Below are positions 15,383 through 35,686 of a DNA stretch of 64,000 bases, one piece after another (the first letter of the stretch is position 1; each line of letters opens with the position of its first letter). The notes under the pieces are model-generated. The model did no database searches and had not been told where the DNA came from. It saw only the letters and a list, made by a program, of their open reading frames with translations. The position numbers were made by a program, and so were the translations under genes. The DNA comes from a virus, in IMG/VR virus record IMGVR_UViG_3300020183_000001, positions 1 to 64,000 of that record. One strand, written 5' to 3'.

Positions 15383-15409
15383 AGGTAGTTTAACGTCATA
15401 CCCAGGACG
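15383..15409 (-). repeat. family 1 pseudoknot element, copy 1
   Basis: CGTC-CTGGGTAT-GACG-TTAAAC-TACCT. Confidence 0.85.
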
Positions 15410-15414
15410 GTTAA

Positions 15415-15687
15415 TCACTCTTTGATGTTGCTTTCAAACGAATACTGACGCCGTTTAATTGCATCAGGGTTTTTTTCTTTTTGGATGACACGTGCATCCT
15501 CTGATGCAGCATACAAAACTTCCTGGAACGAATCCCAAACAAACTTAGGATCTTTTAAATAACCAGTAAATTCAAAAGCATCAAGCGTAATAACGTGTTG
15601 TCTAAGTAGTTGACAAAGCAAATCAGCTTTACTCTGGACAAGGTGTTTGAAATCTTCTTCAGGAAGATCGTAGGTATCAAGGTTCAT
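15415..15687 (-). CDS. hypothetical protein
   Basis: Operonic ORF. Confidence 0.55.
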   Translation of the reverse strand: MNLDTYDLPEEDFKHLVQSKADLLCQLLRQHVITLDAFEFTGYLKDPKFVWDSFQEVLYAASEDARVIQKEKNPDAIKRRQYSFESNIKE

Positions 15688-15934
15688 TGTCAAAAGATTC
15701 CTCAGGAAGGTGTTGTTCAATAGCCGCAGTTAAGGCATCAGTAATAAACTGTTTTTGTTTTTCTTCTCCAAGGTCTGTCCACCATTGGAGATCAGCATCT
15801 GCCTCATCCCATTCAATGTGAATGGTACCAGAACCATCTTCTTCTTCAATGAATGTGCATTGAAGTTTAAAGACGGTGTCAGGATTCATACCTGAGACAC
15901 AGAGTTCTGCTCTGTAGTCTTGTTTGTTTTCCAT
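15677..15934 (-). CDS. hypothetical acidic protein
   Basis: EEEDGSGTIHIEWD motif. Confidence 0.6.
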   Translation of the reverse strand: MENKQDYRAELCVSGMNPDTVFKLQCTFIEEEDGSGTIHIEWDEADADLQWWTDLGEEKQKQFITDALTAAIEQHLPEESFDNEP

Positions 15935-16872
15935 GCATTTGCTAGCTGAGGTAATGCAAGTCCTGGGAAAGGAACAAAGCCGTTATCTAACATGTTATCA
16001 AAAAGATTCCATGCATCGTGTTGTGTGAATACCTCCTTTGGTTTGTAGGTTTTCCATGCAGGCAGTGGGGCCATTGACCCATGTTTGGTATACAGAACCA
16101 AGAAACGACCCTTATCTAATTTACCTTCTGGTGGCGCGTACCACCAAGCAGTAGCATCTTGAGCTGTTGCACCACGACCTGCACTACGTACTTCACCACG
16201 CTTAACGAGGAGTTGTCTGTAGCGTTTGATCCAGGTCAGATGAATACACCAAGGTTTGTAATCACTAATCTCAGCCTGGAACTCAGACAGATTATTTAGT
16301 TGTCGCTGGAAAGATCCGCAAGAGCAGTACGGTGCTTTCTCATATTCTTTGTTGCTACTAACCTCAGCAGTCTCACCATCTTCACCTGCATCAAAATAAG
16401 ATTCCTCAACAACATGGAAGCCGTCAGGGGCAACCAGATGTCCAAGGTCAAGCTGATCACTTTGTAATAGTGTCTCAAGCTTAATCCGATCTTGTATGTG
16501 AATGAACTTATCCGCCCACGAACGTTGAGCTTGCGCTGCAGGCGAGAGGTGCCCAAGTGCGTGGCTGTAGTGCCAACCTTTGAAGAGTACGTATGCATTG
16601 TGACGCCAAATGGATGGACCACGGAAGTTAGGACCTAGGTAAGAGAAAAAATCTTTTAGTCGAAATGTAAACTGCTGGTACGCAGCCTTAATCATTTCCC
16701 TGTCATAAGTTTGCTCAGTACCATCGTTACGCACCACGATAGCAGAATTATCTCGCAAATAAATTGCGGAGATTTCCGTGTCATCAAATTCCGGAAACGC
16801 ACGTCTGATATTGCTACGGGTGTAAATAATTTGTTGAGCTTGGTTGAGTTGAGTAATAAGTTCGGTTGTCAT
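15886..16872 (-). CDS. SWIM-type Zn-finger protein
   Basis: YCSCGSF...KPWCIHL. Confidence 0.7.
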   Translation of the reverse strand: MTTELITQLNQAQQIIYTRSNIRRAFPEFDDTEISAIYLRDNSAIVVRNDGTEQTYDREMIKAAYQQFTFRLKDFFSYLGPNFRGPSIWRHNAYVLFKGWHYSHALGHLSPAAQAQRSWADKFIHIQDRIKLETLLQSDQLDLGHLVAPDGFHVVEESYFDAGEDGETAEVSSNKEYEKAPYCSCGSFQRQLNNLSEFQAEISDYKPWCIHLTWIKRYRQLLVKRGEVRSAGRGATAQDATAWWYAPPEGKLDKGRFLVLYTKHGSMAPLPAWKTYKPKEVFTQHDAWNLFDNMLDNGFVPFPGLALPQLANAWKTNKTTEQNSVSQV

Positions 16873-16907
16873 GGTCGAGTTGAGTTTGTGTTGATTTCCT
16901 GACATGC

Positions 16908-17078
16908 TCAGGATTTGGATTTAAACTTTTCAGCCTGGTACACACTGGTAGTAATTTTGTATGTACCCCAGACTGCTGTGGCAAGGGCGACGGGCGTGCC
17001 AATCATAGCAGCTAATCCACCAGTAATCAGACCAGTTGCAATCCCTGTAACAAATGCAACTTTTTCTTCGTGTTTCAT
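16908..17078 (-). CDS. small membrane protein (56 aa)
   Basis: MKHEEKVAFVTGIATGLITGGLAAMIG... Confidence 0.55.
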   Translation of the reverse strand: MKHEEKVAFVTGIATGLITGGLAAMIGTPVALATAVWGTYKITTSVYQAEKFKSKS

Positions 17079-17121
17079 TTAATTAATGTGAGTAGAATTA
17101 ATTATCTTCAAATAGAAACTT

Positions 17122-17376
17122 ATGGAAGAAGTTTACATTCCCCTACATAAGTTTGATATAGAACCATCGATTGATGATTTGTTTTGGGAAGAGAAAATTA
17201 AACGGTCAATTCAAGAGTGTAACTCCGTAAGTACATTGAAAGAAATGGCTACCCTCTTGGCGAGGATAGCCACACAACGCCAAGGAATAATTAAAGGGTT
17301 GGTCAAAGACATTAACATTTTTAACAACGTGTTGATTGATGCTAATGAAATTGCCAACCCTGAAATCAAACCTTAA
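17122..17376 (+). CDS. hypothetical protein (lone + strand gene in the early arm)
   Basis: TAGAAT just upstream; helical ORF. Confidence 0.65.
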   Translation: MEEVYIPLHKFDIEPSIDDLFWEEKIKRSIQECNSVSTLKEMATLLARIATQRQGIIKGLVKDINIFNNVLIDANEIANPEIKP

Positions 17377-18470
17377 AACGAATAGTTTTCACCAGTGTCA
17401 GGATCTTGTGCAGATGCAAGAGCTTTTACTTCTACATCCACAGCCCTGGACACTGGAAGAATCTCTACTCCCTGCTTGATTCCGTAAGCACCACCAAGTT
17501 TTTCAGCATCTTGTTTTGCATGCTGGTTGATGTAGTCATCAAACATCTCTTGGTACTTCCAAGTTGATTCACGATCTTCATCGGGAATACTGAGGCGATG
17601 CAGTGAACTCATTGCTTCATCTTGAGTGTTGTATTCTGGAATCTCAAAGGATTCAATTGCGCAAATCTCAACGTTGTTGGCACCGCGCATCTCATTAGCA
17701 AGCACTGGTACAAACACTGTGGTTGCATAAAACTTTTCGTTGAATGCAAGCGGCACTTCAGAGTCCAGTGCTTTACTCAAACACTTGGACATCTCACGTT
17801 CGTACATCTTGATCTTATCGCTCGCATCCGTGCCATTAAGTCCCTTCAAGGTAAGAACCATAGGGATCTTGTGTGCACGTTTGTTATCCTGGGTCAGGAT
17901 ATAAACCAGATACTTGGTACGTACACTGTACTTACGACGGTACATCTCACCCTTGCTGTTAGCAAGATCAGATGCAACCTTGTCTGCATCCCAAAGTTCT
18001 TTGACCTCAGGGTTATCAAACGTACCAATCGTTTGCCTCATCCCTGAAGTTTCTTCCACCATAAGCGGGGAACGCAAAAGGATTTGAATTCGAGGCTCAG
18101 TGAAATTGAGTCCCTCTTCAATTGAAGTGTTGGGAGCCATACCGAAAGTTTGCTTGTAGTTCCAAATGACTGAACCTTTAGCAAACTGATCTTCAGTGGC
18201 GTTCCATCCGCAAGTGTCAAGATCTGTGTTCCGCACAAACCAACCTCGTGTCTTGGACTTGTTAAGAGGCTGGATCGTGACGAGGTTTTGATACCCCGAA
18301 ACAAATTCTTTAGATTGAAAAAGCTTGAACGAGTCAAGGCTCCTGGTAGCAAGCGCAGATGTTTTCTTAGTAGTCATAACTTTGGTCGGAAGTTTTTCGG
18401 TAGTAGTTTCTTTGGTGGGTTCTTCAGCAGGGTCAGGTTTTCTTAGTAGGTCAAGGACTGATTCAGTCAT
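17373..18470 (-). CDS. DUF5895-like protein (cyanobacterial/phage family, possibly recombination-related)
   Basis: IQPLN..RGWFV, EEGL..PRI, KYLVYIL..DNKRAHKIPMVLTLKG; adjacent to SSB. Confidence 0.55.
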   Translation of the reverse strand: MTESVLDLLRKPDPAEEPTKETTTEKLPTKVMTTKKTSALATRSLDSFKLFQSKEFVSGYQNLVTIQPLNKSKTRGWFVRNTDLDTCGWNATEDQFAKGSVIWNYKQTFGMAPNTSIEEGLNFTEPRIQILLRSPLMVEETSGMRQTIGTFDNPEVKELWDADKVASDLANSKGEMYRRKYSVRTKYLVYILTQDNKRAHKIPMVLTLKGLNGTDASDKIKMYEREMSKCLSKALDSEVPLAFNEKFYATTVFVPVLANEMRGANNVEICAIESFEIPEYNTQDEAMSSLHRLSIPDEDRESTWKYQEMFDDYINQHAKQDAEKLGGAYGIKQGVEILPVSRAVDVEVKALASAQDPDTGENYSF

Positions 18471-18490
18471 TGGATTGTTGAGTTGGTGGA

Positions 18491-18518
18491 TGGGAAGTTT
18501 AACGTCGTACCCAGGACG
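18491..18518 (-). repeat. family 1 pseudoknot element, copy 2
   Basis: CGTC-CTGGGTAC-GACG-TTAAAC-TTCCCA. Confidence 0.85.
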
Positions 18519-18522
18519 TATC

Positions 18523-18789
18523 TCACTTTAGACCAAGGTCAAGGTTTGGAGCTGGAAGATTAAACTTCCTTAACAGTTCATTGTTGCGGCGTTCTTCCAT
18601 ATCAAAATATTCTTCTGATACAGAAGACATGTGCTCATAAATTGCTTTGTCGTAATGACCGCATCCACGAAGAAAACAAATGAATGAATCAATAATTTCA
18701 CCAACAAACATTGCGTTAACAGTGTTTGTTATTGTGGTGTTATCATCAACATGTTTGAATTCAAAGTGGTTAAACTGTTTTTCAGTCAT
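18523..18789 (-). CDS. hypothetical protein
   Basis: F..FLRGCG.Y motif common in small phage ORFs. Confidence 0.65.
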   Translation of the reverse strand: MTEKQFNHFEFKHVDDNTTITNTVNAMFVGEIIDSFICFLRGCGHYDKAIYEHMSSVSEEYFDMEERRNNELLRKFNLPAPNLDLGLK

Positions 18790-18791
18790 GA

Positions 18792-19607
18792 TCAGAAAGG
18801 AGGTTCTCCATCGTCATCGGTAACTGAAGCCATTGCGTAACCAGGAAGATCAGGAAGGCTGGTACCAGTCTGCGCACCCCAAGGTTCAGCAAGATCTTCA
18901 GCAACCTTTCCACCCCACAGGCTAGCTACTCCTGAGCCAGAAGCAACGGTTGTTTGCGGTTGAATTGGTTTGGCTTCATTGTTTCCTTTAGGTGCCAAGG
19001 TCATTGACACCAACTGAATCTTGGTAGCAACCTTCTTCTCTTTGGTTTCTTTATCTGTCCAGGCATCTGTTACCAGTCTCCCCTGGATCGTAAGCCCCAC
19101 ACCTTTACGTGTAAAGTTAACAAGAAGTTCAGCATAGTTTAACTTATCTTCTGCAGCGTTAATTGCATAGAAGTTAAACAGATCTGATTGATTACGACCT
19201 GTATTAACACCAAGGGTTTGATTACAGATCATCAACCCATCGGCCGTAGTTTTGAATGCACGTGCATCATCTTGATCGATGTCCTTAACACAGCGTCCGC
19301 TGAGAACAACTGTATTGAGGATTGGGAATGATGCGTCAACTTGCGCAACAATTCCTCCATGTAAGGAATACGTTTTCGTATCGAGATCATATCGAAGCTT
19401 GGCGCCGTGAATGTAGATCTGTGCACCGGCTGGAATACGGGCAAATCGTTCAGCAGCTTTACCATAAACATTTAGTTGAATTGGGGTTGGAGCTTTGTTA
19501 CCTACTGGAGGCAACAACACATTACATACGGTTGCAAAAGAGCTTTCGCTAATTGCTTTTTCTTTAGGAGCTTCGGCAGTTTGTGCACAAAGGAATGAAA
19601 GATTCAT
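18792..19607 (-). CDS. ssb: single-stranded DNA-binding protein with tandem OB folds
   Basis: NTVVLSGR, KGVGLTIQGRLVTDAWTDKET; acidic tail DDDGEPPF; N-terminal second OB-like segment VYGKAAE...IYIHG. Confidence 0.8.
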   Translation of the reverse strand: MNLSFLCAQTAEAPKEKAISESSFATVCNVLLPPVGNKAPTPIQLNVYGKAAERFARIPAGAQIYIHGAKLRYDLDTKTYSLHGGIVAQVDASFPILNTVVLSGRCVKDIDQDDARAFKTTADGLMICNQTLGVNTGRNQSDLFNFYAINAAEDKLNYAELLVNFTRKGVGLTIQGRLVTDAWTDKETKEKKVATKIQLVSMTLAPKGNNEAKPIQPQTTVASGSGVASLWGGKVAEDLAEPWGAQTGTSLPDLPGYAMASVTDDDGEPPF

Positions 19608-19628
19608 GAGATCAAACAGTTGGTGGTA

Positions 19629-19655
19629 AGGCAGTTTAACGTCATACCTGGGACG
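19629..19655 (-). repeat. family 1 pseudoknot element, copy 3
   Basis: CGTC-CCAGGTAT-GACG-TTAAAC-TGCCT. Confidence 0.85.
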
Positions 19656-19661
19656 GAACAA

Positions 19662-19808
19662 TTAAAATTCTTTTTTTATCTCATCTAAATACTCTACATA
19701 CTTTTCAAAAAGAGCACCATCATTTCTTAATGATGAATCAAAATGAGAATGAAAAAAGAAAGTTGCAATTTCATGCAGTTGTTTTGCAGTAGCTTTCCAA
19801 TCAGTCAT
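19662..19808 (-). CDS. hypothetical protein (48 aa)
   Basis: Exactly fills the gap after polA. Confidence 0.5.
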   Translation of the reverse strand: MTDWKATAKQLHEIATFFFHSHFDSSLRNDGALFEKYVEYLDEIKKEF

Positions 19809-19809
19809 G

Positions 19810-21675
19810 TCAGTGCGTATCAAACCAGGTGCAGCCTACTTTAGCATCGCCATCGATAGGACAACGGAAGTTAAAGAATTGTTGAGCCTTTGGAAAAGCA
19901 TCCAGTGCTACAGACTTAAGAATGTCTGTTAATTCGGGTTTGCAAGCTAACTGAACTTCATCATGAATCATCGCAGCTTGTTGCCAATCAACACCATGTA
20001 CATAACCAAGTTCATCCATATCTGTATGAATGTTAATAACAACTTGCTTCATAATTAATGCACCTGCTGATTGCAATAAAACATTTAATGCTTTGAAATC
20101 TGATCTACAATAAAGAATACGTTTATCTAAACCACGTAACCAATTGTTTTCTTGTAGTGTTTTTGCAAGATGCTCTTTAAGTTTACGTAGTGCTGGTACA
20201 CCATCCATGAATGAATTAATTGCAGTACTACCTAGTTTGCGCAGAACTACTTCATTTTTTTCATTCGGATCAATAACAGTTCCTGCTTTAAGTGCACCAG
20301 CTCCATAAGCCACAGCATAAAGTAAACGCTTACTTATGTCTCTGGTAGCCACACCAAAACGTTCTTGATTATAAACGTGAATATCAATTGATTCATCTGT
20401 TACTACACGTGCATACTCGCCATCATCCCAGTAAGCAAGGTAACCAGCAAGGCACCTAAGTTCAAGAGCTTTAGCATCTACACCAATTAAGTTCCAACCA
20501 TCTGGTGCATGAAACAAAGATCTACATTCTTTTCCGTAAGGTGAGTATGCTGCTGGTACCTGAGCCATGTTGGGGTTGCGATGACTGCAGCGACCAGTAA
20601 TACATCCGTTTGTTACAACGTCACCATGAATACATCCTGTTTCATTGTTGACTAACTTAAGCCAAGCATTTTTACCATCAGCAATCTGACCAAGACGTTT
20701 CTCAATCAGCATGTACTCAGCTAATGGTTTGGCTTCTGGGTAAGGCAACTGTTCAAGTACGTCATCATCAAGGACAGGGTTTCCTTTTTCAGTTGATTTA
20801 CTTGATTTCCATCCATACTTCTGCTGGAGCCTACTGACAATTTGTTGCCTGGATCCAGGATTAAATTCTTCCAGTCGAACTTTTTCAAATGGAACCCCCT
20901 TTACATAACCACGTGTTTTGTTATTGACCTTTGGTACAAATACTTCTTTGTGTTCAATGGGTGGAAAGATTTCTTTTAAGTGTGTTTCAAGTTCTGTTTC
21001 TTTTGCTCTGAGACTATCCACCAGATCAAGAGCTGCATCCACATCAAAAGAAAAACCTGTTCGCACTTGTGCTTCAATGCATCCAGCAAAGTCATGTTCA
21101 AGTTTGAGTGCAGGTTCTGGATAGTTTTGTTTTTGGATTTTTTCAAATAGTTTTGTGGTAACTGCCACGTCTTGACGGCAGTAGTCTGCCATTGCTTCGG
21201 AGTATTCTGAAAAATCTTTGAAGTCAATCTTGTAATCAGCCAACCGATAACCCCACGCTTTAAGTGAGGCTGAACCACGGAGGCCCTTTGGAACCTCCGT
21301 ATATTGTTCTTCATCAAGGTCATACAGTTTTTCTTTGGGCCAGATGAGTCGAGTACAAATGAGTGTATCAATAATTCGTGCAGCTCTAAACGTATAGAAC
21401 GGATAAAGTTTACGAATTACAGGTAAGTCGTAGAACAGGATGTTATGGCCAATGAGCACATGAGCCCGAGCCAAATGCTCGAGACCACTAGCAATATCAT
21501 CAGGCCCATAAGTAAAAGTTTGTTTTCGCTGGACATCATACAGTACCAAGCAATGTATCTTCGTGACTTTGTCATAAAGATTATCGGTCTCCAAATCGAA
21601 CACGTAATACTTCTCAACCTCTGAACTTGCCTTCAGCGGAAACTTCAAGTTTTTGACAGGCGAGATCTGAGTCAT
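19810..21675 (-). CDS. T7-like family A DNA polymerase with 3'-5' exonuclease
   Basis: VFDLETD, GHNILFYD, YCRQDV, GVDAKALELR, RDISKRLLYAVAYG (Tyr at the T7 Y526-equivalent position), IHDEV. Confidence 0.95.
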   Translation of the reverse strand: MTQISPVKNLKFPLKASSEVEKYYVFDLETDNLYDKVTKIHCLVLYDVQRKQTFTYGPDDIASGLEHLARAHVLIGHNILFYDLPVIRKLYPFYTFRAARIIDTLICTRLIWPKEKLYDLDEEQYTEVPKGLRGSASLKAWGYRLADYKIDFKDFSEYSEAMADYCRQDVAVTTKLFEKIQKQNYPEPALKLEHDFAGCIEAQVRTGFSFDVDAALDLVDSLRAKETELETHLKEIFPPIEHKEVFVPKVNNKTRGYVKGVPFEKVRLEEFNPGSRQQIVSRLQQKYGWKSSKSTEKGNPVLDDDVLEQLPYPEAKPLAEYMLIEKRLGQIADGKNAWLKLVNNETGCIHGDVVTNGCITGRCSHRNPNMAQVPAAYSPYGKECRSLFHAPDGWNLIGVDAKALELRCLAGYLAYWDDGEYARVVTDESIDIHVYNQERFGVATRDISKRLLYAVAYGAGALKAGTVIDPNEKNEVVLRKLGSTAINSFMDGVPALRKLKEHLAKTLQENNWLRGLDKRILYCRSDFKALNVLLQSAGALIMKQVVINIHTDMDELGYVHGVDWQQAAMIHDEVQLACKPELTDILKSVALDAFPKAQQFFNFRCPIDGDAKVGCTWFDTH

Positions 21676-22695: not shown

Positions 22696-22717
22696 GGTTG
22701 TGTTGAGTTGAGTGAAC

Positions 22718-22744
22718 AAGCAGTTTAATGTCGTGCTCAGGACA
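22718..22744 (-). repeat. family 1 pseudoknot element, copy 4
   Basis: TGTC-CTGAGCAC-GACA-TTAAAC-TGCTT. Confidence 0.85.
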
Positions 22745-26557: not shown

Positions 26558-26633
26558 TGGTACCTGAGGTGAGATTTGAACTCACGCTGGAACGATTTTA
26601 AGTCGTTTGCCTCTTCCGCTGGGCTACTCAGGC
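26558..26633 (-). tRNA. trnL: tRNA-Leu(UAA), short variable loop, CCA encoded
   Basis: GCCTGAG/CTCAGGT acceptor; AACGA-CTTAAAA-TCGTT; GTGAG-TTCAAAT-CTCAC; ACCA end. Confidence 0.9.
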
Positions 26634-26890: not shown

Positions 26891-28648
26891 CTAAGCAGAT
26901 GCTAGCGCAGACTCACGTTGCGTCAACGCCTTGCTGAATGCAGTTGTGTACAACTCACGTTCCTCATCCGTAAGCCTGGCGTTGCTAATACCAGCGATCT
27001 GTTTAACGGACATCATACCCATGTTGACTTCCAATTGGATTGTGAACATGGGTTTGCTATCAATCATGCACAGCACAATGAAGTGCTTCTTCTTACGAAC
27101 ACCATCTGCATAACCACTGGCACTACCGACGCAATTACGTACGGCTTGTCCCCATGCAGCTAGTTGATGGGTATCAACTGGTTGGAAAAATGTCCACCTA
27201 CTGGAACCAAGTTCAAGCTTGACTGGTTCTGGGAACAAATCCTGGGGTAGTGATTCGTTTTTGTTCTTGACCTTCCATGCAACAGACTGAACGTGATCAT
27301 GGAACTCCATGAGACGCCAACGTTTTGGAACATCAAGAGTTAGTGGTTCCGTTGCACATGCATTGTGTGCAAGGATTGTATCTAGCATTGATACCGTATC
27401 ACTCCAGTTGGAATAATAAAAACGTGGACACTGTAGATCTGAGTCATAATAGTAACGAGTGTGCGTATTGTTTATTTCTCGTTCATATTCTTTTTCAAGA
27501 ATAGAAAAGAATGAAGCAACAGGCATGTGTTTGTTCAACCATGCTTGTGTAATAATTGTACCTTGACGTGTTGATTTAAAACTTAACAGTTGAACAATGT
27601 AAGTTTGATAGTAATCAATGGGACACTCAGGCCATACGTCATACACAAAAGCAATAGCATTAAATAGTACATGGATCTGAGCCCATGGTCCACGGATACA
27701 CCTAAGATATTGATTACTAGTATCGTTAAACATTGCATTGACTTGATCACATCTTGCTTGAATCCATTTCTTAAAGAACGGAGTAGCAATAATGTGCAGC
27801 ATCTTGTTTAGTTGCCTATAGATATCACCGTCATATCCACTGTCGTGTGCATAATGAGTGATAAGTTTGAACAACAAGTCATATGAGATTACAGCTTTGG
27901 TAATGTCATGTTGTTGCCAGAATGTTCTACATTCTTGACCATAATGATAACCATTAGTGAAGATAACAGAAGCTGGATTGATTGCCCGGAGCCGAGCAAA
28001 AGTTGATTGACTGTCAGACCACATAGGGATTGTGTTAAACAGTTGATCTTCAAATGCTTTTACTTGTTGGCACAGATTACCAGACTTTTTGTAGTAAGCT
28101 TGAGCACCTGGGATGTTCCAGTTCTTTGCATCGTAACCATCAATAATATCTTGTCTGGTTACTAGTTTGTTGAATGTAAAATACTGAACGCGGCCAAGCT
28201 GATATGTAGATAGTTTGTTTGGATTGTCAACGTATAAGTGCTTACGAACTCTATGTGGCAGCATCTTGTGTGCAGATGCGTTGTCTTTGAATGCAAACGA
28301 GTATCCATAAATGTACTGATCTTTTTGATGCTTAGGTGGTAGCCATGCTGCATACCACACTTGCTCAAAGTGATACAAGATTGCATACGGAGTTACTGCA
28401 CCTTCAACAATTCGTGTAAACAGTTGGTAACGATCAGGTGCAGCCTGCAAATTAATATTGTCAATAGCATCGTTATATAACGATACTGGCAATACTTCAG
28501 TTGGAATCAGTTGGTTGGGTTTACCCAGTGGGTGTGCAGCTTTCTTAGTCTTGTTGTTAATTGTTTTCTGTTGTTTAGCCAGTGCTTTAAGAGCTGGGTC
28601 ATACGCCAACAACTCTTGTTGTAGTTGAGTAGGAAGACGGAATTGCAT
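26891..28648 (-). CDS. PcfJ-like domain protein
   Basis: C-terminal HDH...P..THQLAAWGQAVRNCVG..Y...FTIQL...QIAGISN. Confidence 0.7.
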   Translation of the reverse strand: MQFRLPTQLQQELLAYDPALKALAKQQKTINNKTKKAAHPLGKPNQLIPTEVLPVSLYNDAIDNINLQAAPDRYQLFTRIVEGAVTPYAILYHFEQVWYAAWLPPKHQKDQYIYGYSFAFKDNASAHKMLPHRVRKHLYVDNPNKLSTYQLGRVQYFTFNKLVTRQDIIDGYDAKNWNIPGAQAYYKKSGNLCQQVKAFEDQLFNTIPMWSDSQSTFARLRAINPASVIFTNGYHYGQECRTFWQQHDITKAVISYDLLFKLITHYAHDSGYDGDIYRQLNKMLHIIATPFFKKWIQARCDQVNAMFNDTSNQYLRCIRGPWAQIHVLFNAIAFVYDVWPECPIDYYQTYIVQLLSFKSTRQGTIITQAWLNKHMPVASFFSILEKEYEREINNTHTRYYYDSDLQCPRFYYSNWSDTVSMLDTILAHNACATEPLTLDVPKRWRLMEFHDHVQSVAWKVKNKNESLPQDLFPEPVKLELGSSRWTFFQPVDTHQLAAWGQAVRNCVGSASGYADGVRKKKHFIVLCMIDSKPMFTIQLEVNMGMMSVKQIAGISNARLTDEERELYTTAFSKALTQRESALASA

Positions 28649-28675
28649 GGTGAGTTCGTAGTGAGTGTGTGGTGT

Positions 28676-28703
28676 TGAGCAGTTTAACGTCATGCTCAGG
28701 ACG
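28676..28703 (-). repeat. family 1 pseudoknot element, copy 5
   Basis: CGTC-CTGAGCAT-GACG-TTAAAC-TGCTCA. Confidence 0.85.
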
Positions 28704-30513: not shown

Positions 30514-30592
30514 TGCAGTTATTCAAACATTTTGATAAAGAGAATTGTGCCACATATAAAAAATGTGCACAATACTAATGCATCAGGCCAGC

Positions 30593-31089: not shown

Positions 31090-31115
31090 GGTGAGTTAAG
31101 TGTGTAGTAGTTGAG

Positions 31116-31160
31116 CAAGCTGGGACTTACACGCCTTCTGTCAGAGCGATGCCCAGCTTG
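31116..31160 (-). repeat. family 2 structured element, copy 3
   Basis: CAAGCTGGG-CAT-[CGC..GCG]-TGTAAGT-CCCAGCTTG. Confidence 0.8.
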
Positions 31161-31269
31161 TGTTTATAAGCTTACCACCCTCTGTCAAGGGTGACCACCC
31201 CGTTCATGAGTGGGAGCGTGCATATTTGGGGTGAAAGCTTATTGAGAATTTAAATAAATGTTTAATTTA

Positions 31270-31641
31270 TTAATTAGCTTTTGTTAATTCAAATGTATTT
31301 AAGTTATTGTTCATTGTTTTAAAACCCCATTTTCTACGGTTAGTATTTTGTTCAGATTTTATTGCCCATTTTAAATTATTTGGATTATTGTTAGATGGAC
31401 AATTATCAATGTGATCAATAGTCATAGATAATTTGTATTCATTAAAAGTTAAAACATACACTATTAAATGTACTGGATATTGTTTACCTTTATATGTAAC
31501 ACGCCAATATCCATGTGAAGTTAAACAACCTGCAACGTTGTTTGCTTTAACACGATTAGTAATTGATATTTTCCATCTTAAAAAAGATGGAGAAGTTTCA
31601 TCTACATAAAACAAATTTTTAAATAAGGTTAAATTGTTCAT
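31270..31641 (-). CDS. HNH homing endonuclease-like protein (AT-rich island)
   Basis: AGCL..GYWRV...VHLIVY...IDHIDNCPSNNNPNNL. Confidence 0.85.
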   Translation of the reverse strand: MNNLTLFKNLFYVDETSPSFLRWKISITNRVKANNVAGCLTSHGYWRVTYKGKQYPVHLIVYVLTFNEYKLSMTIDHIDNCPSNNNPNNLKWAIKSEQNTNRRKWGFKTMNNNLNTFELTKAN

Positions 31642-31646
31642 TGCAG

Positions 31647-31970
31647 TTACCGATGCATTTCTTGGTGTTCTTTCCATGCAGCAGTGTGCATTTCATCCAT
31701 AGTTATCGGTGGTTCACCAACCCATTCATCTGGTTCATCAGGCCATTCGATAGCTTGCTCAAGTTGACCAATGGCTTCTAACAGATATTCTTCGTAATGA
31801 TACGGAAGATCATTGTATCCCAAGGGACGATTCTGTTCCCGTTGGTAGATAGCCATAAGTTCTTCGATGATCAGCGTGATGCGCATGTCATCGTTGAGCT
31901 GGTAGGTATGTGTACTACCATCATGACGGGTGTACGTGTTGCTGGTGAATTGAAGTTGATGTTTAGCCAT
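31647..31970 (-). CDS. hypothetical protein
   Basis: GEPPITMDEMH.AAW motif. Confidence 0.7.
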   Translation of the reverse strand: MAKHQLQFTSNTYTRHDGSTHTYQLNDDMRITLIIEELMAIYQREQNRPLGYNDLPYHYEEYLLEAIGQLEQAIEWPDEPDEWVGEPPITMDEMHTAAWKEHQEMHR

Positions 31971-31998
31971 GGTGTGTTTGTTGATAGTTGATTTGATG

Positions 31999-32037
31999 CT
32001 GGGACTTACATCACGTACTTATGTAGTAAATGCCCAG
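31999..32037 (-). repeat. family 2 structured element, copy 4
   Basis: Near-identical to copy 2. Confidence 0.8.
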
Positions 32038-32103
32038 CTTGTAGTATTAGTACTATTGCCAATACATGGATAGTATTGGCAAGTTTTATGTGCGCTTCAA
32101 TAC

Positions 32104-32385
32104 TTAGATTAAGCCAAGGATTGAGAGCCAACTGTTGGGGTCGTCGGGTTCGACCTCGTCCTCCTCTGGCGTGAAACAGACTGAGTCGAAGACCCACTCT
32201 TCAATTTCTTCGAGCGTGGGGACGGGGTACCACTCACGTTTCCAGAAGATGTGCGGCCAACCGTCTCTGATTTCAACGTCGTGGAAGCAGAGTGTGGTGT
32301 CGGCTGGCTCTTGTCCCTCTTCGTTGGTGAGTGGGGTGTAACCGACGATTGCAGCAATGTCGTGTTGGATGGGTTGGAGGGCCAT
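32104..32385 (-). CDS. hypothetical protein (GC-rich)
   Basis: PTLEEIEEWVFDSVC.TP..DEVEPD...SWLSILGLI. Confidence 0.7.
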   Translation of the reverse strand: MALQPIQHDIAAIVGYTPLTNEEGQEPADTTLCFHDVEIRDGWPHIFWKREWYPVPTLEEIEEWVFDSVCFTPEEDEVEPDDPNSWLSILGLI

Positions 32386-32481
32386 AGTAGTGAGATGAAT
32401 TGAAGGAACAGTGTAGTGAGAATGGTCAGGATAACGATGATGTGTAGTATTACATCATCATTATATTGTTGAGGCTGAGTG

Positions 32482-32619
32482 TTAGTCATCAGTTAGTTCA
32501 TCAGTTGGGTTAGGTGGTTGCATCTCTTCTTGCATAGCTTGTTCCTGCTGGTACGCAAGGTCAGACCATGCGTCAAGAAGATCTGCATTGTAGTTCTCAT
32601 CGAGTTGTTGAGTTGTCAT
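32482..32619 (-). CDS. small acidic protein (45 aa)
   Basis: Starts 20 nt after family 1 copy 6. Confidence 0.55.
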   Translation of the reverse strand: MTTQQLDENYNADLLDAWSDLAYQQEQAMQEEMQPPNPTDELTDD

Positions 32620-32638
32620 CGAATGAGTTGATAAAGGA

Positions 32639-32667
32639 CTGAGCAGTTTAACGTCATACTCAGGACG
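32639..32667 (-). repeat. family 1 pseudoknot element, copy 6
   Basis: CGTC-CTGAGTAT-GACG-TTAAAC-TGCTCAG. Confidence 0.85.
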
Positions 32668-32716
32668 GATATCAAGAATATGAATAAACGACGTTTATCA
32701 GAATTCCAAGTAATAG

Positions 32717-33100
32717 CTAGTCAAATGGTTTAAAATCTGTATCTTTCAAGAGAGAGTCAATGTGTGCAACATCGCATTCTCTCATGTATTCACTTAAGTT
32801 TTCTGATGGATCAATCTCATAGTCATCAGTTTGATTCTCAACAACTTCGCATCCAATGTCTTCGAGTTGATCAACGTAGTTATCCCAGCTATTGGCATTG
32901 CCATAGACATGGGCATAACGCCCGGTCTGGTCAACGACAAGTGCTACATAAGTCATGGGTTGAGCCTCAGGTAGTGTGAAGGGTCTTTGTTCTGCAGCCA
33001 TTAACTTTGCAGTAATGGCACGCAAATCGTGCCTAGATAGTTCTCCATTTGGTCTCCACTTCAACGCGGTATTTGCAAATGTTGTAGTAGGTAAGACCAT
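32717..33100 (-). CDS. hypothetical protein (start uncertain)
   Basis: Operonic ORF. Confidence 0.55.
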   Translation of the reverse strand: MVLPTTTFANTALKWRPNGELSRHDLRAITAKLMAAEQRPFTLPEAQPMTYVALVVDQTGRYAHVYGNANSWDNYVDQLEDIGCEVVENQTDDYEIDPSENLSEYMRECDVAHIDSLLKDTDFKPFD

Positions 33101-33125
33101 TGGAATAACAGATAGGTTAATTAGT

Positions 33126-33344
33126 TTACCGTGGTTCGACCAAGGTTTGTTGGCATGACCACTGTAGTAAAGACTTTGTAAAGTCGGTACCAAGCATAGC
33201 GCCTGTTACGACAAAAGCGATACCGATAACAATGGTTGCAGATAAAAAGTTACAAAGGTAACGTCCTGCTCTACTGCTGTGGTACTCAGGGTACACATCA
33301 GTGTGAATAAATTGTTTAGGTCCAAGTTTAGTAATCTGTTTCAT
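33126..33344 (-). CDS. small membrane protein
   Basis: Single hydrophobic helix. Confidence 0.55.
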   Translation of the reverse strand: MKQITKLGPKQFIHTDVYPEYHSSRAGRYLCNFLSATIVIGIAFVVTGAMLGTDFTKSLLQWSCQQTLVEPR

Positions 33345-33420
33345 TGGAGAAAGTCCTGTGTAGTAGGAATCAACCTTCGGTTGATGGACGGAGTAATACA
33401 ACTGTACTACGTTGCAATAG

Positions 33421-33490
33421 GCAGGAGAGGAAGAAGATCTCCTGCAGAAAACCCACTCATCAATGATGAGCAGGGTTAAGTGCAAGAATC
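33421..33490 (-). repeat. family 3 structured element, copy 1
   Basis: TTGCA-N3-..CCC[hairpin]GGG-TTTTC-TGCAG..CTGC. Confidence 0.7.
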
Positions 33491-33503
33491 AGTTAGTCAA
33501 GAG

Positions 33504-33896
33504 TCAGGCCGCAGCAGTTGCAGCCTTCTTCTTACTAGCAGCCTTCGTTCCTTCCTCAGCTTTGGGCTGAGGCTTGGAACCAAAGGCATAATCAGTCACT
33601 TTCAGTTGAAACTCTGGTTGCTTGAGCGGCATGAGCTCTTCATCTTTCATATAGAAAGCACGGATGCCTTGAATTTTACCAGACACCGTGAGCTCTTGGC
33701 CTACAACCAGATTGTCATTGGTATAAGCAGTAAGCAAACCATTGCTGTTGAAGAATTTGATTGTGACCACAGCATCTTTAGAGATACGGTGGTACAAAGT
33801 AACAACCAAACAGTCACGCTCATCTTCCGTTTTGATAACGATAAGACTTGCAATGCGACCAACAACAGTAAACGTTTGCAGATCAGCGTAAGTCAT
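33504..33896 (-). CDS. second SSB-like single OB-fold protein
   Basis: TFTVVGRI...LVVGQELTVSGKI; basic rather than acidic tail. Confidence 0.55.
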   Translation of the reverse strand: MTYADLQTFTVVGRIASLIVIKTEDERDCLVVTLYHRISKDAVVTIKFFNSNGLLTAYTNDNLVVGQELTVSGKIQGIRAFYMKDEELMPLKQPEFQLKVTDYAFGSKPQPKAEEGTKAASKKKAATAAA

Positions 33897-33926
33897 AAAA
33901 TTAAATTGAGTTGAGTTGATAAGCAA

Positions 33927-33980
33927 GCAGAGATGAACTCTGCAGAAACCCATCGAAATCGATGGGAATATGCAAAGATC
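33927..33980 (-). repeat. family 3 structured element, copy 2
   Basis: CTTTGCA-TAT-TCCCATCG..CGATGGG-TTTC-TGCAGAG..CTCTGC. Confidence 0.75.
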
Positions 33981-34133
33981 ACCAGTCGTAAACACGAATG
34001 GCTTTAAGGTTAACAGGAGAGATATCCAGTAGTTCAGCACCAGCAAGCAATGCTTCTGTTTGTGTGCGAGCCATTAGCTCAATAACAAACTCACTACTAA
34101 ACACTTTCCAAATAACCAAGGGACGTTCCACGA

Positions 34134-34376
34134 TTAGTCCACTAGATGTTCTTGTTCCCATTTAAGAAGTGCACGGTTGAGATCAACCTTCTTCTCAAGG
34201 ACAACACAGAACGGGACCAAGTCTTGGAACTGTACCAAGCCATCTTGCCATTGATAAAAGATCTCCAGTGCAGCCTGGCGCTGACTTTCAATCTCCTGAT
34301 CAATGATAGGAGTGTCTCGACGTGCAAGAAGACGAGCTTCTTGGGTAAGGAGACGTTCAACAGCTTTAGGAGTCAT
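34134..34376 (-). CDS. hypothetical protein
   Basis: Follows a family 3 element. Confidence 0.65.
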   Translation of the reverse strand: MTPKAVERLLTQEARLLARRDTPIIDQEIESQRQAALEIFYQWQDGLVQFQDLVPFCVVLEKKVDLNRALLKWEQEHLVD

Positions 34377-34406
34377 AGCGAAACCAAGTGGAGTTGAGTT
34401 GAGTTG

Positions 34407-34460
34407 TGCAGATGTAAAGTCTGCAGAAACCCATCTTGTTACAGATGGGAATTTGTAGAC
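34407..34460 (-). repeat. family 3 structured element, copy 3
   Basis: GTCTACA-AAT-TCCCATCT..AGATGGG-TTTC-TGCAGAC..TCTGCA. Confidence 0.75.
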
Positions 34461-34461
34461 A

Positions 34462-34728
34462 TCACATCATTTGTTCGATGCGTTCTTGCTCCATTGTGGT
34501 GGAATAGTCGTAATACTCTTGCATCTCCATCAGCATGTCTTTCATGCTGGTAGGAATTGAACCAAGAGTACGTACGTCGCGATCAATCCACTCTTGCCAT
34601 GTGGCACCAGTGTCTAGATCATACATGTTCCACAACTTCTCAAAGTGAAGCTGTGTAGTTTCAACGTTGTACCAAGTAACGCGATACCGTCCTTCGTCAG
34701 GACGGTAGGTAAGTGTTGGGGTAGCCAT
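34462..34728 (-). CDS. hypothetical protein
   Basis: Operonic ORF. Confidence 0.6.
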   Translation of the reverse strand: MATPTLTYRPDEGRYRVTWYNVETTQLHFEKLWNMYDLDTGATWQEWIDRDVRTLGSIPTSMKDMLMEMQEYYDYSTTMEQERIEQMM

Positions 34729-34731
34729 AAG

Positions 34732-34917
34732 TCAATTAGTTTTGTAACCGTTAGAAGCACACCAATTCATATGAATTTGATGCGCAGGCTTAGGCCAGTC
34801 ATGTTGAAGGCATTGTTTAGCAGTTGCTTCGTGCAACAAACGTGCACCAATGCAACTAGCAATACCTCCACCAATAACAACGGTAGCAATGTAAATAACC
34901 AATTGATTCTTAGTCAT
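34732..34917 (-). CDS. small membrane-anchored protein
   Basis: TM helix followed by QCLQHDWP...WCASNGY. Confidence 0.65.
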   Translation of the reverse strand: MTKNQLVIYIATVVIGGGIASCIGARLLHEATAKQCLQHDWPKPAHQIHMNWCASNGYKTN

Positions 34918-35090
34918 GAGTTGATGTGCAGTTGACAATCGTTAGGCATAATAAGTGCAGCCGCACGAATGCGGTATTCACTTATCTTCTGTCCAAGCTG
35001 CTGTTTAGATGGCAGCTTAGCAGTTTCTACTGCAGATGCTGTTAGTTTCAGCAATGCAGCAGTATTCTTTCGAATGTGTAGTGCAGTCAT
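34914..35090 (-). CDS. hypothetical protein (58 aa)
   Basis: ATGA coupling to the next gene. Confidence 0.55.
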   Translation of the reverse strand: MTALHIRKNTAALLKLTASAVETAKLPSKQQLGQKISEYRIRAAALIMPNDCQLHINS

Positions 35091-35129
35091 AAGTTGAATT
35101 GAGTTAAGCCACTCTCAGTGAGTGGCAAT

Positions 35130-35176
35130 AGTTAGGCAGGGGTTTGCACCCTGCCACCCGCTTGTACGGATTAACC
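35130..35176 (-). ncRNA. family 4 mini tRNA-like three-way junction, copy 1
   Basis: GGTTA-A-TCCGT ACAA GCGGG-T-GGCAGGG TGCAAAC CCCTGCC-TAACT. Confidence 0.65.
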
Positions 35177-35416
35177 GTAGTTCTCGGGAAGCTCTACAAG
35201 CTCTGCAAGAACTTGGTGTTGCAGCTCGCGTTCGCCAGCAATCTTCAGTCCCCATGCGGCAATCTGAAGAGCTTGCTCACGGCTTAGTAGCTGCGAGTGG
35301 CCTGACTCCATCCAAAACTGGATGAGATCGTAGGCCGTAGCCGCTAGTTCTTCCCTGGTAGGAAGTACAGCAGCAGTAGTGTTGGTCACGGTATTCTCCG
35401 TGTGTGCGGTACCCAT
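35171..35416 (-). CDS. hypothetical protein
   Basis: Start MGTAH inside a 30-bp repeat. Confidence 0.6.
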   Translation of the reverse strand: MGTAHTENTVTNTTAAVLPTREELAATAYDLIQFWMESGHSQLLSREQALQIAAWGLKIAGERELQHQVLAELVELPENYG

Positions 35417-35431
35417 CTCCGCTGAGGGTAA

Positions 35432-35480
35432 TAACTGGGACAGGGTTTGCACCTGTCCTCCCGCTTTAACGGATCAGTTA
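35432..35480 (-). ncRNA. family 4 mini tRNA-like three-way junction, copy 2
   Basis: TAACTG-A-TCCGT TAAA GCGGG-A-GGACAGG TGCAAAC CCTGTCC-CAGTTA. Confidence 0.65.
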
Positions 35481-35641
35481 AGAGACCTAAACTTAATTAA
35501 AGCCTCACGAATTGCTTCTTGTACCCAGTGCTTTGGTACTGGATACAGCTGCCATTGCTTCCACGTCTCAAAAACAAGACGCCGTTCGACAGCTGAAAGA
35601 TGTTTGTAGCTCACAGGAATCTCCTGTTGTGCGGTACCCAT
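35474..35641 (-). CDS. hypothetical protein (55 aa)
   Basis: Start MGTAQ inside a 30-bp repeat. Confidence 0.55.
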   Translation of the reverse strand: MGTAQQEIPVSYKHLSAVERRLVFETWKQWQLYPVPKHWVQEAIREALIKFRSLN

Positions 35642-35657
35642 TTCCGCTGGGGGTAAT

Positions 35658-35686
35658 GCTACGGTTTAACGTCCATCAGCTAGACG
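35658..35686 (-). repeat. family 1 pseudoknot element, divergent copy 7
   Basis: CGTC-TAGCTGATG-GACG-TTAAAC-CGTAGC. Confidence 0.65.

Follow-up and report, generated by a model that had tools for sequence, protein, structure and literature searches.

To our knowledge, exoribonuclease-resistant RNAs (xrRNAs) have until now been described solely in eukaryotic RNA viruses. The described xrRNA closest to the element reported here is the plant-virus motif coremin (xrRNA_C / xrRNA_WCC), a short hairpin (hp1) with an adjoining spacer, which halts the exoribonuclease Xrn1 one nucleotide ahead of hp1. According to the published mutagenesis, the closing pair of coremin may be C-G or U-A, not G-C, and only a pyrimidine is accepted at the start of the loop. 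Within the spacer A15-A17, C18 and U19 are essential and U13U14 is tolerant to change, and Watson-Crick pairs between loop and spacer (6-8/18-20) were proven with compensatory mutants. The loop consensus is YGAD (4 nt) or YGNNAD (6 nt), but the motif reportedly tolerates loops of 6-8 nt, and those of 7 and 8 nt can still work in the BNYVV context. Furthermore, Xrn1 is resisted only if a second hairpin (hp2) adjoins the spacer on its 3' side. In these reports coremin acts without protein in vitro, works without a ligand, blocks scanning ribosomes and stimulates -1 frameshifting, and its fold is called unelucidated. Bacterial RNase J1 is also stopped by other xrRNAs. No published report of coremin in phages was found.

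Other known systems resemble the element in part. In the preQ1-I riboswitch aptamer (RF00522) the elements follow in the same H-type order, and an A-rich linker precedes the short 3' pairing. Luteovirid-type pseudoknots, which stimulate -1 frameshifting, are very small and of H-type, measuring about 28 nt; their first loop is a single base, a junction base is present, and an A-rich linker runs along the first stem. Bacterial mRNAs are stabilised by 5' stem-loops or stalled ribosomes, which block the entry of RNase J or RNase E, and by REP or terminator hairpins, which block 3' exonucleases.

The window analysed here comprises 64,000 nt of a lake cyanophage, in which the original prediction had placed seven copies of an H-type pseudoknot. 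All seven strings are present at these places, on the minus strand, which is the gene-sense strand, and the positions originally given are their 3' (low) ends. The 10-mer GACRTTAAAC occurs eight times in the window (seven times on the minus strand, once on the plus strand) versus 0.37 expected, and at least eight copies were reached in none of 100 shuffles of the window. Scores with the covariance model R1, which was built from 129 family members, mark six occurrences as firm copies (43.3-50.3 bits, E 1e-9 to 1e-11), located among the early and replication genes; of the other two, one is a doubtful copy and one a chance 10-mer. All eight are listed below with the R1 scores and, in brackets, the span in gene sense.

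15382..15409, minus strand (15409-15382): copy 1, CGUC / CUGGGUAU / GACG / UUAAAC / UACCUA; 47.8 bits, E 6.7e-11; ATG of a 37-aa ORF 22 nt downstream.
18491..18518, minus strand (18518-18491): copy 2, one U-U in S2; 44.9 bits; upstream stop codon at 4 nt, ATG of a DUF5895 gene (Pfam) 20 nt downstream.
19628..19655, minus strand (19655-19628): copy 3; 44.8 bits; upstream stop codon at 6 nt, ATG of ssb (271 aa, Pfam SSB) 20 nt downstream.
22717..22744, minus strand (22744-22717): copy 4, outer P1 pair U-A; 43.3 bits; stop codon of thyX (Pfam Thy1) at 17 nt, ATG of a GP88-like gene (Pfam GP88) 21 nt downstream.
28646..28675, minus strand: example of a leader from knot to start codon, unstructured, G-poor and without a Shine-Dalgarno sequence.
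28676..28703, minus strand (28703-28676): copy 5, 6-bp S2 without mismatch; 50.3 bits, E 1.4e-11; upstream stop codon at 5 nt, ATG of a PcfJ-like gene (585 aa, Pfam PcfJ) 27 nt downstream.
32640..32667, minus strand (32667-32640): copy 6; 49.4 bits; ATG of a 45-aa ORF 20 nt downstream.
35658..35686, minus strand (35686-35658): copy 7, doubtful, P1 and UUAAAC present; 10.4 bits, E 1.6.
37372, plus strand: chance 10-mer inside a 1072-aa ORF; 12.1 bits, E 0.55.

In the doubtful copy 7 the model matches only the 10-mer locally (35664); the loop has 9 nt and begins with U instead of the C of the family, and the tail can pair only with a bulge. The downstream genes named before, ssb, DUF5895, GP88 and PcfJ, were all found again with Pfam, and the loop-tail pairings had been listed correctly, including the U-U of copy 2 and the G-U pairs. 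The anatomy of copy 4 likewise agrees with the swap of the outer P1 pair, which is U-A there and C-G in the other window copies, and the closing pair is C-G in all window copies. The linker UUAAAC, which had been called invariant, is so within the window genome, but across the family invariance is confined to AAAC, with which the linker ends in 97/100 sequences; its 5' part is free in sequence and length, with a total of 6-11 nt. Copy 3 moreover shows compensatory changes at the orthologous site of S-EIVl.

The copies are compact H-type pseudoknots of about 28 nt, made as RNA in the sense of the genes. From 5' to 3' each is composed of P1 (4 bp), a C, a 6-nt loop arm, a Y, the second strand of P1, UUAAAC and a tail, which pairs with the loop arm. 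This second stem, S2, has 5-6 bp between the hairpin loop and the bases just 3' of the NNAAAC linker, one C crosses between the stems, and the linker presumably lies in the minor groove of P1. Covariation in both stems had been predicted from the window copies and is strongly borne out, as both stems covary across hundreds of sequences of unrelated phages. Among 129 sequences, 91.9% of the pairing cells can pair versus 83.1% in shuffles (0/500 shuffles as high), while slid registers pair in just 20-51% of cells; five of the six S2 pairs show changes on both sides. At the four inner S2 pairs, 93-96% of 121 unique sequences have Watson-Crick or G-U combinations, and swaps of G-C to A-U occur. 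With S2 held fixed and P1 left free, 82 of 106 unique sequences form all four P1 pairs and 23 form three, and some 40 stem sequences can be distinguished; a C-G pair closes the loop in 103 of the 106, and the loop begins with C in 105, the remaining one having U. The first tail base is U in 88/97 sequences and its partner, the loop A, is present in 93/97; the second loop base is U in 79/97 (G in 5) and the last one U in 75 and C in 12. Loops of 8 nt (C-U-N4-A-U) are found in the window and in most phage copies. The cells include 80 G-U versus 26 A-C, which points to RNA in the gene sense. An Rfam search, suggested along with the original prediction, matched no family, whether the gathering score was applied or E<=10 was allowed in a 91-nt search.

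The fold is common to many unrelated phages, with hosts in Firmicutes, Actinobacteria, Cyanobacteria, Proteobacteria and Bacteroidota, and to some bacterial chromosomes; 74 of 115 loci with an identical core share no protein with the window phage. True copies are intergenic and co-oriented with the neighbouring genes. Only 3/131 viral copies lie inside same-strand and 8/131 inside opposite-strand ORFs, versus 18/44 and 24/44 of the chance matches, and 244 of 447 copies sit between two same-strand genes. Head scaffolding genes recur downstream (14 and 9 loci), and in Staphylococcus B166 and Lactobacillus phiEF-1.1 the knot stands in the late operon directly before the scaffold and major capsid genes. 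True copies are also present in a Vibrio phage and a crAss-like phage. In L024 the motif is sometimes found in tandem near contig ends, in Staphylococcus phages a BPROM-predicted promoter is annotated over it, and in two loci Pistol and RAGATH-5 RNAs lie 0.6-1 kb from it.

Compared at the level of sequence, this phage and bacterial family has an invariant core equal to the plant-virus coremin motif, since its invariant positions, namely C-G as closing pair, C at the start of the loop, AAAC in the linker and the next U, are those essential in coremin mutagenesis. Neither this match nor the wide spread of the family had been noticed in the original prediction. Both elements are short hairpins closed by C-G with a pyrimidine first in the loop; both keep AAAC and the following U in the spacer, the 5' part of which tolerates change and insertion, and both occur intergenically. 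A loop base pairs with that U in the register of the proven 6-8/18-20 pairs, here extended to 5-6 bp, and 13 consecutive bases are common to copy 1 and the published 20-mer. However, the phage loop of 8 nt (C-U-N4-A-U) is not of the YGAD or YGNNAD type, S2 has 5-6 Watson-Crick pairs versus 0-3 in coremin, and no second hairpin follows the knot in any of the six window segments from S2b to ATG, all of which fold at 0 kcal/mol. Moreover, the phage form resides in dsDNA phages and bacterial chromosomes, with hosts lacking Xrn1, and it occurs in several copies per genome at cistron junctions. The possibility that the knot blocks exonucleases, one of the functions originally proposed, thereby gains real but indirect support from the match of its core to an xrRNA.

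The same spread bears on the other proposals. An operator for an RNA-binding protein, serving a phage regulon or autoregulation as in the T4 gene 32 leader, might be suspected from the six copies heading early and replication genes of one temporal arm, ssb among them, and from the conserved sequence core. However, the identical core is found in many loci that have no protein in common with the window phage, in phages of five host phyla, in bacterial chromosomes and in eukaryotic RNA viruses; a partner protein common to them all is not plausible, and coremin needs none in the published in vitro assays. A protein-binding site had been suggested, but a single shared one is thus unlikely, and the operator reading as a whole is quite improbable. 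We judge it even less probable that the knot is a ligand-sensing riboswitch or a very small self-cleaving ribozyme punctuating transcripts. The H-type topology with an A-rich linker, the adjacency to tRNAs and the neighbouring Pistol and RAGATH-5 RNAs would agree with it, and the likeness to preQ1-I in topology without likeness in sequence had been noted before. However, the Rfam model of preQ1-I is not matched, there is no link to queuosine genes (ssb, DUF5895, GP88, PcfJ, scaffold genes and tRNAs follow, which are not of one pathway), and the knot differs by its single-base junction, its long S2 and its many copies per genome. The length of S2 should let it form with no ligand bound, the plant-virus form works without one, six copies per genome precede unrelated genes and tRNAs, and in the accessible part of the coremin reports the transcripts are assayed as Xrn1-resistant RNAs, with no mention of self-cleavage. 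Least of all do we expect a signal at the DNA level, such as a promoter read by a phage RNA polymerase or a binding site of a transcription factor. Whereas the location upstream of genes, the tandem copies and the annotated promoter would suit such a signal, covariation in P1 and between loop and tail has no role in duplex DNA recognition, the excess of G-U over A-C speaks for RNA, and the motif is also found in RNA viruses. No phage RNA polymerase family was detected among 17 distinct large ORFs scanned in the window, a subset of its ORFs.

We tentatively favour, with a confidence approaching but not reaching the even mark, that the knot acts as a protein-free mechanical bulkhead at the cistron junctions of polycistronic phage mRNA, most likely as a block to 5'-to-3' decay. 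While fold, strand, spread, intergenic placement and coremin match are established, we infer the nuclease resistance, its direction and its benefit. In the window form the coremin-type Watson-Crick helix between loop and tail is lengthened and the second hairpin is dropped. An enzyme tracking along the RNA from the 5' side, such as the exonuclease RNase J, RNase E searching from a 5' monophosphate end or perhaps a sliding ribosome, would halt at the knot, and after an upstream cut the message behind it would survive as a stable unit. Such units might comprise ssb, the polymerase-arm genes and the PcfJ-like gene here, and scaffold and capsid genes or tRNAs elsewhere. The knot appears to be packed as tightly as ribosomes permit, 4-6 nt past the stop codon (copies 2, 3 and 5) and about 20 nt ahead of the start, so that it could stay folded during translation of both genes. 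The proposed role, a structure at a processed end giving operon segments different lifetimes, is shared with the known stabilisers of bacterial mRNA ends, which however are plain hairpins of free sequence and not a sequence-specific tertiary fold found across virus realms.

The same spacing could belong to a ribosome insulator or translation element, which would stop sliding or re-initiation or position a start lacking a Shine-Dalgarno sequence, and thus allow independent translation of the cistrons. The near-fixed distance of 20-27 nt from knot to ATG in copies 1-6, across unstructured, G-poor leaders without Shine-Dalgarno sequences, the short gaps behind the stop codons and the published effects of coremin on scanning ribosomes and on -1 frameshifting are consistent with this, as is a conserved 25-codon ORF that in some MAGs ends within the knot ahead of an Rrf2 regulator gene. 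Nevertheless it is improbable, as the knot stands directly before tRNA genes in 27 contexts, where translation is not at issue, and other phages have variable distances to the start and leaders with ordinary Shine-Dalgarno sequences. On inspection by eye, no slippery heptamer is evident at 5-9 nt ahead of the window copies, nor an overlapping -1 frame. A -1 frameshift stimulator was considered and rejected, since in the window the knots come behind a stop codon and ahead of an independent start, and many family members precede tRNAs. Luteovirid-type knots share size, H-type plan, one-base first loop, junction base and A-rich linker with the phage knot, and coremin stimulates frameshifting as well, but they act in overlapping frames, and according to the coremin literature known frameshifting knots do not stall Xrn1.

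The tests of genomic context give no clear preference to a 5'-to-3' decay block over a structured 3' end, in which the knot would belong to the upstream gene and stabilise its message. In that case an endonucleolytic cut just behind the knot, by RNase P if a tRNA follows and otherwise by RNase E or Y, would leave a tail too short for the 3'-to-5' exonucleases PNPase, RNase II and RNase R. The knot begins 0-9 nt past a same-strand upstream stop codon in 45 of 139 cases with an upstream ORF within 250 nt. Where junctions have changed, it stays with the upstream family in 70/147 and with the downstream family in 39/132 (p 0.002, from junctions that are not independent events), and Hsp20 (25/29 junctions), DUF932 (25/26) and ribonucleotide reductase (12/16) are the upstream families that it follows faithfully. 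A tRNA lies 2-8 nt 3' of the knot in 23 distinct contexts, and also in the named phages NMeng1, Molivia and cr124_1; this is easier to reconcile with a 3' cap arising from RNase P cleavage than with a shield of the 5' end. RNase J is present in cyanobacteria (the Synechococcus elongatus control was positive) and is weakly enriched in hosts with the motif: 28/47 genomes with a true motif versus 14/44 with chance matches exceed the cut-off (p 0.011), but at E<=1e-20 the numbers are 30/47 and 22/44 (p 0.21). It was not found in 17 motif-bearing genomes, mostly small MAGs, nor in the tested Vibrio and Bacteroidales genomes, and a cap against 3'-to-5' exonucleases, which are universal, would suit hosts without RNase J. 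These three points, the weak RNase J link, the knot following the upstream gene more often and the closely placed tRNAs, count against the 5' block, as does the missing hp2 in the window copies, and the first three leave the 3'-end cap a serious rival, which we nevertheless regard as unlikely. The sole experimental data on the core, those on coremin, describe a 5'-to-3' block with a stop just upstream of hp1. Knots of Gram-positive phages precede scaffold and capsid genes, which are those expected to need stabilising, and 22 copies head a same-strand gene after an opposite-strand one versus 12 at convergent ends. In L073 and the L080 group the knot lies 1-2 nt 3' of a CCA-encoding tRNA, the 3' trimming of which it would hinder. 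Furthermore, a plain hairpin would suffice as a 3' cap, which leaves the conserved tertiary core unexplained. If the knot did cap 3' ends, it would represent a type of 3' stabiliser, linked to cleavage by RNase P, that is likewise new for bacteria.

If instead the favoured block to 5'-to-3' decay holds, the xrRNA principle would extend to bacteria, since the coremin core is present in hundreds of dsDNA phages as well as in bacterial chromosomes. We regard it as possible, though rather less than probable, that the family constitutes the first class of exoribonuclease-resistant RNA in prokaryotes. The tertiary fold with which RNA viruses of plants and fungi oppose Xrn1 would then serve dsDNA phages of many phyla, along with some bacteria, as a protein-free roadblock, selective for direction, to RNase J and 5'-end-dependent RNase E, by which long messages are cut into units of different lifetime. 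This could explain the differing expression of genes within one phage operon (scaffold and capsid genes, ssb, tRNAs), and synthetic operons would gain a stabiliser or insulator part of 28 bases that works without protein. Within the same claim, covariation would also solve the coremin fold, as the natural set of sequences gives a testable secondary and tertiary model with a 4-bp P1, a one-base crossing, an S2 of 5-6 bp and the AAAC strand along P1. Coremin forms with 4-nt CGAA and 6-nt YGNNAD loops and the same P1 and linker were found in the same database scan on small contigs, five of eight checked encoding an RdRp.

The source virus record comprises 82,633 bases with direct terminal repeats, the window being its first 64 kb, and the DNA polymerase of this phage is 74.9% identical to that of the freshwater cyanophage Synechococcus phage S-EIVl. 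DNA of the phage is present in 24 sequencing runs, all of which are DNA runs of lake or freshwater metagenomes. The minus strand is the sense of a long block for replication and nucleotide metabolism, encoding primase, DNA polymerase A, SSB, ThyX, GP88, DUF5895 and a PcfJ-like protein. The 10-mer GACRTTAAAC occurs seven times on the minus strand and once on the plus strand of the window, versus 0.37 expected occurrences. The anatomy of the originally predicted ~28-nt pseudoknot, consisting of a 4-bp first stem (P1), a loop arm, a UUAAAC linker and a tail that pairs with the loop (helix S2), is present at all seven minus-strand sites. The predicted number of seven copies stands for six of them, which score 43-50 bits with a covariance model made from family members, whereas the site at 35664 matches the 10-mer only and scores 10.4 bits. 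Since the scores split in this way, six sites of the window are counted as firm copies, one as doubtful and the plus-strand site as a chance match. The whole genome was also searched with a looser structural detector, which is blind to copies with an S2 mismatch, recovers 5/6 copies of the window and has a false-hit rate of 0.35 per shuffled genome; it revealed no additional divergent copies. The sites and their neighbors are as follows.

15382, 18491, 19628, 22717, 28676 and 32640 (lower ends), minus strand: the six firm knots, copies 1 to 6
35658 (lower end), minus strand: copy 7, doubtful
~37372-37373, plus strand: chance GACGTTAAAC, a 10-mer match only (12.1 bits, covariance model), within a 1072-aa ORF
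36800-40018, plus strand: this 1072-aa ORF, heading the plus-strand arm, with no match in Pfam or PHROG
15246-15359, minus strand: 37-aa hydrophobic ORF behind copy 1, starting MFETLLGIVV
10159-10195, plus strand: abiF RNA (Rfam RF03085, 53.1 bits)
10200-10271, plus strand: tRNA-like gene directly after the abiF RNA, with an odd 2-base anticodon call
26558-26633, minus strand: tRNA-Leu (anticodon UAA) within the early arm, with no knot adjoining in this genome

In the relatives L016, L030, L039 and L076 the orthologous knot is likewise followed by a conserved start of the 37-aa ORF, which probably encodes a small membrane protein missed by a 50-aa cut-off.

A pattern scan of IMG/VR gave at least 115 loci. 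This and the further family scans held parts of the motif fixed, P1 in the first one. Their tallies count sequences and not evolutionary events. Among the matches listed there are 121 unique instances with flanks, in which the loop pairs with the tail in a single register: the four inner S2 positions form Watson-Crick or G-U pairs in 93-96%, and shifting the S2 partner by one to three bases destroys the pairing. Exchanges between G-C and A-U are frequent in the inner pairs. When 129 sequences were aligned, the share of paired cells was 91.9% versus 83.1% in column shuffles (0/500 shuffles as high), slid registers paired in 20-51%, and five of the six S2 pairs changed on both sides. Because the first scan had fixed P1, it was repeated with S2 fixed and P1 free, and among the matches listed 4/4 P1 pairs formed in 82 and 3/4 in 23 of 106 unique sequences, the stem being made of some 40 distinct sequences. 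The C-G pair that closes the loop was constant in 103/106, and the first loop base was C in 105/106. With the linker left free, AAAC stands at its end in 97/100 unique sequences among the matches listed, after 2-7 bases that vary. In the scan that did not fix the loop, 8 nt is the commonest length (97/169 unique, among the matches listed), and these 97 sequences have A as penultimate loop base in 93, U (75) or C (12) as last base, and U as first tail base in 88. Moreover, G-U pairs outnumber A-C mismatches by 80 to 26 (121 unique, among the matches listed), and therefore the structure belongs to the gene-sense strand. S-EIVl itself has seven copies, all on the same strand, and the knots that precede its genes for SSB and for the GP88-like and PcfJ-like proteins are set apart from the window knots by paired, compensatory changes. 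These data show a genuine fold, formed at the RNA level. The covariation that had been proposed for both stems is thus borne out by the shuffle and register tests of S2, by the P1-free scan and by the paired ortholog changes. The knot also occurs in tandem, with three copies at ~43-nt spacing near a contig end (L024, 11121-11240, minus strand) and pairs in L056, L122 and L209.

A literature search with the literal 10-mer pointed to a paper by Dilweg, Peer and Olsthoorn from 2023 (PMC10520033) and hence to coremin, a plant virus motif that is described there as a hairpin of 3 bp with a YGAD loop, followed by a conserved spacer of 10 nt and another hairpin. Coremin is reported to halt Xrn1 one base ahead of the first hairpin and also to stall scanning ribosomes, and loops of 6 to 8 nt are able to work (PMC10520033). 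According to the published mutational map, the essential bases of the spacer are its three As, its C and its U; the two Us preceding the As can be changed and tolerate insertions, and a closing C-G or U-A pair is allowed whereas G-C is not (Dilweg et al. 2019, PMC6546385). For "Watson-Crick type" variants, pairing of loop positions 6-8 with spacer positions 18-20 is described as proven by compensatory mutants, and the second hairpin as dispensable for frameshift stimulation yet required for resistance to Xrn1 (Dilweg et al. 2023, PMC10321173). The natural variation of the phage knot tracks this map at each position, and its loop-tail helix lies in the same register but is longer. However, the phage knot has neither the literal loop consensus nor the second hairpin. 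Therefore, judged by sequence, it is classed not as a plain coremin member but as a coremin-class variant with a lengthened S2 and without hairpin 2. For the papers listed, titles and abstracts give no account of the motif from phages or bacteria; literal 13-14-mers matched primers only, and "coremin" together with bacteriophage gave an unrelated match only. Among the matches listed in our scan there are also small contigs on which the P1 and linker of the phage knot are combined with 4-nt CGAA or 6-nt YGNNAD-type loops. Of eight such contigs checked, five encode an RdRp (tombus-, picorna- or alpha-like), one a sobemovirus-type protease and one a tombusvirus-type coat protein alone. The IMG/VR contig L017 (3959 bases) carries a phage-type knot with an 8-nt loop at 2383-2404 (plus strand), just before a tombusvirus-type coat gene (PF00729), and is probably a eukaryotic RNA virus with the exact phage knot variant. 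The 786-aa ORF of L017 and the large ORFs of another motif locus, L046, have no Pfam match.

The family is not confined to relatives of the window phage, as 74 of the first 115 loci listed have no protein in common with it. At least 83 Staphylococcus records match, many of them temperate Staphylococcus aureus phages, of which one copy (B166) was read. In B166 and in Lactobacillus phiEF-1.1 the knot lies within the late operon, where it directly precedes the genes for scaffold and major capsid protein, and its P1 sequence is flipped. In Nostoc NMeng1, Arthrobacter Molivia and a crAss-like phage a tRNA follows 3-5 nt behind the knot, and true copies are also present in Mycobacterium Labelle, Paracoccus ParMal1, the T4-like cyanophage S-H35 and Vibrio phage D454. 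Among at least 122 pattern matches in bacterial genomes, all five inner pairs are formed in 49 and four of them in 19; the remaining ones look like chance matches. Nine loci (L134, L142, L162, L172, L179, L196, L222, L235, L242) have a conserved ORF of ~25 codons with its own Shine-Dalgarno sequence that ends inside the knot; the MAGs concerned, where checked, are by title Candidatus Omnitrophota, Planctomycetales or Planctomycetia. The peptide core is Y-M-L-R-P-V-A-H-C-K-E-G-C, the stop is a UGA formed by the last loop base and the GA of P1, or elsewhere a UAG or UAA overlapping the knot, and a gene for an Rrf2-family regulator begins 16-75 nt further on. The peptide ahead of the Rrf2 genes matches no Pfam or NCBIfam family, and the arrangement looks like a control unit of leader peptide and knot.

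True family instances are intergenic. Among the matches listed, viral copies lie inside ORFs in 3/131 cases on the same strand and in 8/131 on the opposite strand, and genomic copies in 4/68 and 6/68, respectively, versus 18/44 and 24/44 for the chance pattern matches in bacterial genomes. Moreover, 244/447 detector hits with flanks stand between two same-strand genes (among the matches listed), and 61 copies were classed as heading a unit and 68 as ending one, with no-neighbor cases counted in, figures that favor neither the upstream nor the downstream gene as partner. In the window, the gap from the upstream stop codon to the knot is 4-6 nt for copies 2, 3 and 5, and the next ATG follows 20-27 nt after the knot end in copies 1-6. 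These six leaders are G-poor, have no Shine-Dalgarno sequence and fold at 0 kcal/mol, i.e., are unfolded. Taking the generally known footprint sizes of ribosomes, this spacing suggests that the knot fits between the footprints of a terminating and an initiating ribosome and can stay folded because it is packed between them. Outside the S-EIVl group the commonest downstream genes encode two families of head scaffolding proteins, at 14 and 9 loci (among the matches listed). Paenibacillus- and Desulfosporosinus-type loci (L034, L101, L127, L156, L183, L210, L233) have a second conserved stretch ~15-25 nt past the knot, preceding a DUF4355 scaffolding gene, where Rfam gave no match at gathering score.

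By analogy to coremin, the knot would by itself, without a protein, halt enzymes that track from the 5' side, so that the RNA behind it would outlast an upstream cut. Other xrRNAs are described to stop bacterial RNase J1 in vitro, cyanobacteria possess RNase J (control), and the position ahead of scaffold and capsid genes in late operons fits such a 5' shield. RNase J above the family cut-off is found in 28/47 genomes with the true motif versus 14/44 with chance matches (p 0.011), and at E<=1e-20 in 30/47 versus 22/44 (p 0.21), both comparisons being confounded by phylogeny. Seventeen motif-bearing genomes, chiefly small MAGs, gave no RNase J match; it is also absent from the tested Vibrio and Bacteroidales genomes, yet Vibrio and crAss-like phages carry true copies. 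The link between RNase J and the knot is thus weak. Several observations suit a different role, in which the knot caps the 3' end of the upstream RNA. Where a neighboring family differs, the knot is kept with the upstream family at 70/147 junctions versus 39/132 for the downstream family (p 0.002; crude ORF calls were used as genes and related loci were not collapsed), which leans toward the upstream gene as partner of the knot; Hsp20, DUF932 and ribonucleotide reductase are among the upstream families that keep it faithfully. A tRNA lies within 2-8 nt behind the knot in 23 distinct contexts (among the matches listed); the reverse order, tRNA then knot, was found in two detector cases and in two further groups at 1-2 nt. 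A cut by RNase P at the knot-tRNA junction would leave an upstream RNA that ends in the knot and a very short tail, and therefore suits a 3' cap. Since the RNase J, junction and tRNA results count against a 5' shield, we hold that the knot may act as a block to decay, without commitment to the 5' or 3' direction of protection.

Two further readings were rejected. A promoter is disfavored by the covariation, and no RNA polymerase was found among the large ORFs scanned; by eye, no consistent -10 box stands at a fixed distance from the window copies. For a frameshift signal there is an A-run 14 nt before copy 3, yet the -1 frame has just ~25 codons. The comparison with Rfam that the original prediction had proposed was carried out and revealed no known family at the knot, neither in the whole window at gathering score nor at E<=10 in 25 kb or in the 91 nt around copy 5. 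On 18 other loci Rfam matched neighboring RNAs alone and none at the knot. A DUF2800 RNA (RF02960, 88.9 bits) starts 7 nt past the knot in L148 (1-128, minus strand), and a Pistol ribozyme (L026) and a RAGATH-5 RNA (L047) lie 0.6-1 kb from knots.
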